Assembly (NCBI RefSeq): GCF_003334355.1
Contig: NZ_QOWP01000003.1
Source: Escherichia coli
GTDB taxonomy: Bacteria; Pseudomonadota; Gammaproteobacteria; Enterobacterales; Enterobacteriaceae
Strand: one strand, 5' to 3'
DNA length: 64,000 nt
The position numbers and the translations under genes are program-made. Every line of letters begins with the position of its first letter. Position 1 is the first letter of the stretch. The notes under the pieces are model-generated. The model made no database searches and had not been told where the DNA came from. It worked only from the letters and a program-made list of their open reading frames with translations. Positions 56,597-56,978 of the stretch are shown here, in pieces.

Positions 56597-56743
56597 CTAT
56601 TGCTGCGCTTTCGTTGCTGCGCCAGAAATCGCGTTACCGCCATCAGAAATGTCTTCACCAACGCCACGCGTGGTGTTGCAGGCAGTTAATACTGTTGAAA
56701 GCACCAGAACAGAAAAGATCGCTGCAATTGTCTTCTTCACCAT
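56597..56743 (-). CDS. ecnB: Entericidin B lipoprotein
   Basis: Hand-translated 48 aa: [48 protein letters not shown]. Confidence 0.85.
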
Positions 56744-56852
56744 AACGTCTTCCTTTTAGGTAATGTTATTTATGTTTGCCTATAGCAAATTAATAATAGA
56801 CAACATCGCCAAAAATGACGGAAATCTGATGATTTTTCGGAAGAGAAGAAAA

Positions 56853-56978
56853 ATTAGCTGGCAGCGCGAGAGATGGAGTTGCCGAGATGTTTGATGTCTT
56901 CGCCGAAACCGCGAGCGGTGTTACAGCCCGTGAGCAGCGTGCTGGCAAGCAAAACAAGAACGATAAGGCGTTTCATCA
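56853..56978 (-). CDS. ecnA: Entericidin A lipoprotein
   Basis: Hand-translated 41 aa: [41 protein letters not shown]. Confidence 0.85.

Follow-up and report, generated by a model that had tools for sequence, protein, structure and literature searches.

RefSeq and EcoGene entries for Escherichia coli, like the names of the corresponding NCBIfam models, present entericidin B (EcnB) as a bacteriolytic toxin and entericidin A (EcnA) as its antidote. Bishop et al. are said by later papers to have found in 1998 that overexpression of ecnB lyses the cell, and that ecnA supplied in cis relieves this effect. The toxin/antitoxin annotation would thus have grown out of the reported lysis by overproduced EcnB and its reported lessening by co-expressed EcnA.

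Several published observations stand beside this label. A deletion of ecnA is viable and exists in the Keio collection (PMC7296081), and neither deletion of ecnB nor deletion of the ecnB promoter is described as having a notable phenotype. In minimal medium, EcnB has been counted at up to about 70,000 molecules per cell (PMC12529367), and it is the most abundant lipoprotein of Shigella sonnei outer-membrane vesicles, which are shed by a culture that is not killed (PMC4820968). We consider the description of the pair as a toxin plus an antidote to be weakly founded, resting as it does on one overexpression study from 1998. EcnB itself ranks near the top of the small proteins of E. coli both in abundance and in conservation. 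The weak footing of this lipoprotein toxin/antitoxin label is the scientifically live point of the locus. The presence of ecnA and ecnB is in itself a correct but ordinary finding: no RefSeq E. coli genome lacks their annotation, and the window carries them unaltered.

Identity and coding status of ecnA and ecnB

The window, by which we mean the whole 64,000-nucleotide stretch of E. coli DNA that was analyzed (assembly GCF_003334355.1, contig NZ_QOWP01000003.1), corresponds to positions 4,369,296..4,427,988 of the K-12 chromosome in reversed orientation. Its relevant features are collected in Table 1. The first-pass annotation had placed two tandem small lipoproteins of 41 and 48 aa, recovered by hand translation, at 56597-56978 between gdx and efp, and had identified them as ecnA and ecnB. 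Careful re-translation returned exactly these lengths, with no frameshift and no internal stop in either gene, and the flanking genes are indeed gdx/sugE and efp, both on the same strand as the pair. The boundary at 56597 is exact, whereas the other, 56978, misses the annotated ATG at 56979 by a single base.

Table 1. Positions of the features discussed in the text, in window coordinates
Feature	Position	Strand	Details
Unaligned end of the window	1..174		unaligned to the K-12 ytfA/yjfZ region (megablast)
RpsF leader	3038..3122	minus	RF02893, 110.1 bits
Accessory block, 5.1 kb	~18136..23273		between rlmB and yjfI; absent from K-12
tRNA-Gly(GCC) genes	40622..40930	minus	only two genes, 157-nt spacer
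gdx/sugE	56098..56415	minus	105-aa SMR transporter
Guanidine-II (mini-ykkC) riboswitch	56433..56479	minus	RF01068, 49.3 bits, gathering score 32
ORF antisense to ecnB	56488..56745	plus	85 aa
Sigma-70-like promoter match for gdx	56525..56498	minus	upstream of the guanidine-II riboswitch
ecnB intrinsic terminator	56548..56585	minus	12-bp stem, 4-nt loop (56558..56585), then TGTTTTTTCT
Repeat at the ecnB stop	56591..56602	minus	TAG, then one extra GCAATA unit (6 bp) relative to K-12
ecnB CDS	56597..56743	minus	48 aa + TAG stop; entericidin B prolipoprotein; uninterrupted ORF
Codon of EcnB Cys22	56678..56680	minus	
Predicted MicA 5'-end pairing site	56712..56742	minus	ecnB codons 1-11; RNAduplex
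ecnA-ecnB spacer	56744..56853	minus	110 bp; ecnB promoter and 5' UTR
-10-like pause element	56779..56787	minus	TGCTATAGG; directly after the putative -10
Putative sigma-S-type -10 element	56793..56799	minus	CTATTAT (C then TATTAT); in the conserved block
Conserved spacer block	56793..56800	minus	TTGTCTAT(TATTAA)
ecnA CDS	56854..56979	minus	41 aa + stop; entericidin A prolipoprotein; uninterrupted ORF
Codon of EcnA Cys19	56923..56925	minus	
G+C-rich hairpin	56994..57027	minus	in the 51-nt efp-ecnA spacer; -22.6 kcal/mol, z = -2.5
efp	57031..57597	minus	

Once the sequence of 55800..57900 had been read and every ORF of 20 aa or longer listed, the region around ecnAB proved to contain 42 of them within 2.7 kb. 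Frames of the size of ecnA and ecnB are therefore frequent by chance, and the reality of the two genes needs other evidence. EcnA scores 114.9 bits against the NCBIfam equivalog NF007319 (entericidin A; curated cut-off 86) and EcnB 121.9 bits against NF007487 (entericidin B; curated cut-off 94), with E-values of 1e-33 and 6e-36 for the two ORFs; each protein also matches the model of the other, below its cut-off. Residues 24-43 of EcnB match the Pfam family PF08085 (Entericidin) with E = 5.9e-07. Both proteins are identical, without a single changed residue, to b4410 and b4411 of E. coli K-12, and the 396-bp locus is found, with ecnA and ecnB annotated, in 5425 of the 5426 complete E. coli genomes.

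Comparison with the Salmonella and Klebsiella orthologues gave dN/dS values of 0.015-0.045 for ecnB and 0.08-0.18 for ecnA, set against 0.07-0.08 for gdx and about 0.01-0.02 for efp. Synonymous change is saturated in both small genes (dS of about 1 or more) and amino-acid change is rare, so that in these comparisons ecnA and ecnB are both under purifying selection. In addition, mass-spectrometry proteomics of E. coli picks up EcnB peptides with a consistency that few other small proteins match (PMC12529367). The two small genes are real, already catalogued chromosomal ecnA and ecnB, known since 1998. This is the ecnAB locus itself rather than a mere relative of it, and every feature of entericidin-family membership that could be tested was found. 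The first-pass annotation had made the same identification and had also remarked that both fall under the 60-aa cut-off of the ORF track, as at 41 and 48 aa they do. The pair accordingly serves as a positive control: hand translation recovers genes that are too short, at under 60 aa, to show up in a length-filtered ORF track.

The window reads as the reverse complement of K-12 at this locus, and the first-pass proposal of a comparison with annotated ecnAB leads to the same proteins, annotation and synteny there. Relative to K-12 MG1655, ecnA has no nucleotide differences, while ecnB encodes the same protein and ends in TAG here as opposed to TAA. Four intergenic substitutions are divided evenly between the ecnA-ecnB and ecnB-gdx spacers. 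At the ecnB stop, the repeat reads GCAATA-GCAATA-A-GCAATA-A in the window and GCAATA-A-GCAATA-A in K-12. This tandem-unit indel sits exactly at the stop and leaves the protein unchanged, and the differences from K-12 are trivial. Gene order in K-12 is also the same (epmB / efp-ecnA-ecnB-gdx / blc-ampC, with blc beyond gdx and epmB divergent from efp), as are the ecnA-ecnB spacer and the terminator. The synteny efp-ecnA-ecnB-sugE-blc-ampC and its annotation are likewise shared between K-12 and strain 720632.

Elsewhere in the window, a few features differ from K-12. Of the 5426 complete E. coli genomes, 513 have the full length of a 5.1-kb accessory block of sugar-acid-type genes. In other genomes its four genes carry the annotations UxaA-family hydrolase, MFS transporter, dihydrodipicolinate-synthase-family protein and IclR regulator. 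At the junction of this block the alignments to K-12 share about 17 bp. K-12 has three tRNA-Gly(GCC) genes, glyV, glyX and glyY, spaced about 36 nt apart, and the window has only two; at least 80% of the query for this two-copy allele is covered in 1607 of the 5426 genomes. In a megablast comparison, the first 174 nucleotides of the window did not align to the ytfA/yjfZ region of K-12, and the adjoining 18 kb are only 98.5% identical to K-12, compared with 99.3-99.7% for the rest. An RpsF leader lies upstream of rpsF-priB-rpsR-rplI, as is expected there.

Protein anatomy and transcription of the locus

Lipoproteins of E. coli mature by way of Sec, Lgt, LspA, Lnt and then Lol, and the +2 rule describes their sorting. 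Both ORFs carry the lipobox cysteines that had been claimed for them, and both satisfy the pattern [LVI][ASTVI][GAS]C: EcnA at Cys19 (LTGC), following a signal peptide of residues 1-18, and EcnB at Cys22 (LTAC), following one of residues 1-21. The n-regions begin MMKR in EcnA and MVKK in EcnB, each with two K/R among the first six residues and a hydrophobic core behind them. Tandem ATGs at 56979 and 56976 are both possible starts for ecnA, and the choice between them does not affect the mature product. On the established pathway, the signal peptides would be removed and the cysteines triacylated, leaving mature peptides of 23 aa (EcnA) and 27 aa (EcnB). As the +2 residue is Asn and not Asp in both proteins, these lipopeptides would be transferred by Lol to the outer membrane. 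This predicted placement agrees with the finding of EcnB in vesicle proteomics, where it is assigned to the outer-membrane lipoproteins and contributes 8.4% of Shigella sonnei vesicle protein mass (PMC4820968). The lipidation of C22 of EcnB given in UniProt is a curator assertion, and top-down mass spectrometry misses the intact protein, as is expected of a lipidated peptide (PMC12529367).

EcnA and EcnB are paralogous to each other and agree at 24 of 44 residues (55% identity, E = 4e-14). They share the core C-N-T-x-R-G-x-G-E-D-I and the typical precursor length of about 40-50 aa. Across six EcnA and EcnB sequences the invariant columns are C22, N23, T24, R26, G27, G29, E30, D31, I32, G36, I39, S40 and A42. 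Both mature peptides are rich in glycine and close to neutral, with a net charge of +1 for EcnA and -1 for EcnB, in which they differ from typical pore-forming peptides. The alpha-helical hydrophobic moment of the full mature peptide was matched by none of 2000 shuffles for EcnA and by 4 of 2000 for EcnB, and because of this significant moment it seems probable that both would lie on the membrane surface as short amphipathic helices. AlphaFold2, run with a six-sequence alignment, predicts one continuous helix, although pLDDT reaches no more than 65-67 over the mature peptide, and in simulations EcnB binds membranes reproducibly. A PDB sequence search with both proteins, at E-values up to 10, returned no relative with a solved structure. 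Mature EcnB is almost invariant across three genera, which suggests a specific interaction or partner rather than generic membrane damage.

The ecnA-ecnB spacer has diverged between genera with the exception of one block, TTGTCTAT, which is unchanged in the spacer alignment of E. coli, Salmonella and Klebsiella. This block holds the putative sigma-S-type -10 element, and transcription of ecnB would start near 56785/56786, a position that is uncertain at the level of single bases. PMC5389655 describes a separate, sigma-38-dependent ecnB promoter that the sigma-70 holoenzyme recognizes poorly, with a -10-like pause element just past +1 and pausing at +17/+18; it also reports an OmpR site that overlaps the promoter, and repression by OmpR. 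The layout of the -10 and pause elements in the window fits this description, although we infer the assignment of individual bases.

Downstream of this promoter, AAGGAAG, a strong Shine-Dalgarno sequence, stands 6 nt ahead of the ecnB ATG. The small RNA MicA is reported to repress ecnB mRNA in E. coli (PMC3551931), and pairing of nt 1-28 of K-12 MicA with the 5' region of ecnB was predicted by RNAduplex at -24.2 kcal/mol, compared with an average of -12.8 (sd 2.8) for shuffled targets, of which 1 in 1000 did as well. The predicted duplex is consistent with the reported repression. In addition, CspC/E are reported in Salmonella to shield ecnB mRNA from RNase E, and an inhibitor of LolCDE causes a sigma-S-linked induction of ecnB of 7- to 13-fold without ecnA. 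The gene is a separate and heavily regulated transcription unit.

At its other end, the ecnB terminator folds at -24.3 kcal/mol (z = -4.6), a stability that none of 200 shuffles equaled, and this strong terminator isolates ecnB from gdx. The riboswitch ahead of gdx, which consists of two hairpins with the loops ACGA and ACGG, is set 18 nt before the start codon; with its own promoter and riboswitch, gdx stands outside the entericidin unit. Most RefSeq genomes name this gene a quaternary ammonium compound efflux SMR transporter SugE, and in K-12 it is named a guanidinium exporter. The hairpin between efp and ecnA has no T-run and so is not a canonical terminator, and a scan of 56950..57750 for sigma-70 promoters and terminators returned no promoter-like or terminator-like sites; transcription of efp may read through into ecnA.

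Readings of the toxin and antidote label

We consider it very probable that these are the chromosomal ecnA and ecnB genes for two paralogous small lipoproteins, and we take the pair to be stress lipopeptides that would modulate membrane stability in opposite directions. In this model, EcnA and EcnB would be lipopeptides of stationary phase, osmotic stress and envelope stress with opposing effects on the membrane, and such reciprocal modulation by two stress-induced lipopeptides is the most likely mechanism. The first-pass annotation had gone further in calling EcnB a membrane-active bacteriolytic lipoprotein and EcnA its antidote. This matches RefSeq and EcoGene, but the property is a reported and contested one, and two readings of it have to be weighed.

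The reading that survives better holds that there is no toxin system here, and we regard it as a genuine possibility that falls somewhat short of probable. EcnB and EcnA would then be abundant lipopeptides of the outer membrane or cell surface, induced by sigma-S and envelope stress, with a structural, adhesion or vesicle role in which EcnB binds a conserved partner or shapes vesicles or the surface. The lysis of 1998 would be a non-specific artefact of overproduction, caused by the overloading of lipoprotein maturation and Lol transport. It is in keeping with this that EcnB is so abundant in the cell (PMC12529367) and is the leading lipoprotein of S. sonnei vesicles (PMC4820968), that ecnB responds to Lol inhibition, and that the near-invariance of mature EcnB in three genera would suggest a specific partner. 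Homologues point the same way: Atu8019 of Agrobacterium is exposed on the surface of vesicles and mediates docking without being lytic (PMC7296081), and Moraxella and Xanthomonas mutants have adherence and biofilm phenotypes (PMC7296081 and another paper). Against it, the lysis and relief result of 1998 was never retracted, a secreted EcnB-like peptide of Enterobacter C6-6 reportedly kills Flavobacterium (cited in PMC7296081), and EcnB is not known to have a partner or a structural role in E. coli. The window itself bears on a non-toxin role of EcnB through conservation and regulatory-site evidence only.

Less likely, and in our judgment improbable, is a strict toxin-antitoxin system of addiction or programmed lysis, in which a lethal EcnB is continuously neutralized by EcnA, and the loss or shortage of EcnA in stationary phase lyses part of the population. 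Its advocates can point to the standing RefSeq/EcoGene annotation and NCBIfam model names, to the lysis and its relief as later papers relate them from Bishop's 1998 work, and to the greater conservation of the "toxin" ecnB than of the "antidote" ecnA, a pattern often seen in toxin-antitoxin pairs. Such a system is, however, hard to square with a viable ecnA deletion, with the unremarkable deletions of ecnB and its promoter, and with an EcnB that is naturally very abundant. Under LolCDE inhibition ecnB is induced without ecnA, and the death of the cell is only speculated on by the authors of that work. A toxin and an antidote that are paralogues of the same architecture would also be unlike the known toxin-antitoxin types, and the Agrobacterium homologue Atu8019 is non-lytic (PMC7296081).

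Nor did we find operon coupling of the supposed toxin and antidote, given the 110-bp spacer, a -10 element specific to ecnB, a natural split by an insertion sequence and discordant expression. In strain IAI39, an IS1 lies in the ecnA-ecnB spacer (3272..3969 of the IAI39 locus sequence), with both CDSs intact; this is a natural uncoupling of the two genes, and the insertion probably disrupts the ecnB promoter region. The spacer, the promoter of ecnB's own and the IAI39 insertion together indicate that ecnA and ecnB are coupled neither translationally nor transcriptionally.

A search of plasmids for the context of an addiction module returned 13 records, most of them chromosome-sized or chromid-like replicons labeled as plasmids, and among these 13 there was no support for a role of ecnAB in plasmid maintenance, which counts against the addiction reading. 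One of the records stands apart. The Salmonella sp. plasmid pPJT1-452kb, a conjugative IncHI2A record, carries a block that is normally chromosomal (1..3388 of the extracted segment), with the order epmB-efp-ecnA-like-ecnB-LuxR-type regulator-sugE-lipocalin. Either the plasmid may have captured a segment of a chromosome, or the assembly may be chimeric. The strict addiction reading of ecnAB is, in sum, weak.

That the two frames are chance ORFs, with the real feature being non-coding or on the opposite strand, for instance the plus-strand ORF antisense to ecnB, has next to nothing in its favor beyond the frequency of short ORFs in the region, and is ruled out by the family-model E-values, by saturated synonymous change with near-zero amino-acid change in the ecnA and ecnB frames, by EcnB peptides in many mass-spectrometry studies (PMC12529367), and by an Rfam search which, even at permissive E-values, placed no RNA family over the two genes.

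Comparison with known systems

The likeness of ecnAB to type II toxin-antitoxin systems such as MazEF lies in two adjacent small genes, one of which is reportedly harmful when overproduced while its neighbor counteracts it. The differences are more extensive. The products of ecnAB are exported lipoproteins, whereas those of the MazEF type are cytoplasmic enzymes with labile protein antidotes. Moreover, ecnA and ecnB are paralogues. Instead of forming an autoregulated operon they have separate promoters and lie 110 bp apart, and deletion of the antidote is viable.

A second comparison is with OsmB and similar E. coli lipoproteins, which are small and Gly-rich, are under sigma-S or osmotic regulation and belong to stationary phase. 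The likeness extends to induction, as they are co-induced with ecnB under LolCDE inhibition. To our knowledge, OsmB has no paired paralogue and no claim of lysis attaches to it, and the family-model search detected no sequence relation between it and EcnA or EcnB.

A third comparison is with Atu8019 of Agrobacterium tumefaciens, another small lipoprotein of the entericidin A/B family. It too has a lipobox and a short mature peptide, and it is associated with the outer membrane and vesicles (PMC7296081). It differs from the E. coli pair in being a single gene without an EcnA partner, and in having a described activity, the docking of vesicles from an exposed position on their surface; it is non-lytic both in cells and on liposomes (PMC7296081).

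A further comparison is with the entericidin loci of Salmonella and Klebsiella, which share the synteny efp-ecnA-like-ecnB-sugE-blc and, with it, the arrangement of two paralogues. Their EcnA orthologues, at 43-44 aa, are the more diverged of the two proteins, and the ecnA-ecnB spacer of Klebsiella is longer than that of E. coli. In Salmonella a gene for a LuxR-C-terminal-type regulator, which we take to correspond to ecnR of Citrobacter, lies between ecnB and sugE, where E. coli has none. EcnB, by comparison, is 92-96% identical in the two genera, and both keep the CNT-RG-GEDI core of the mature peptide together with the -10 block TTGTCTAT of its promoter.
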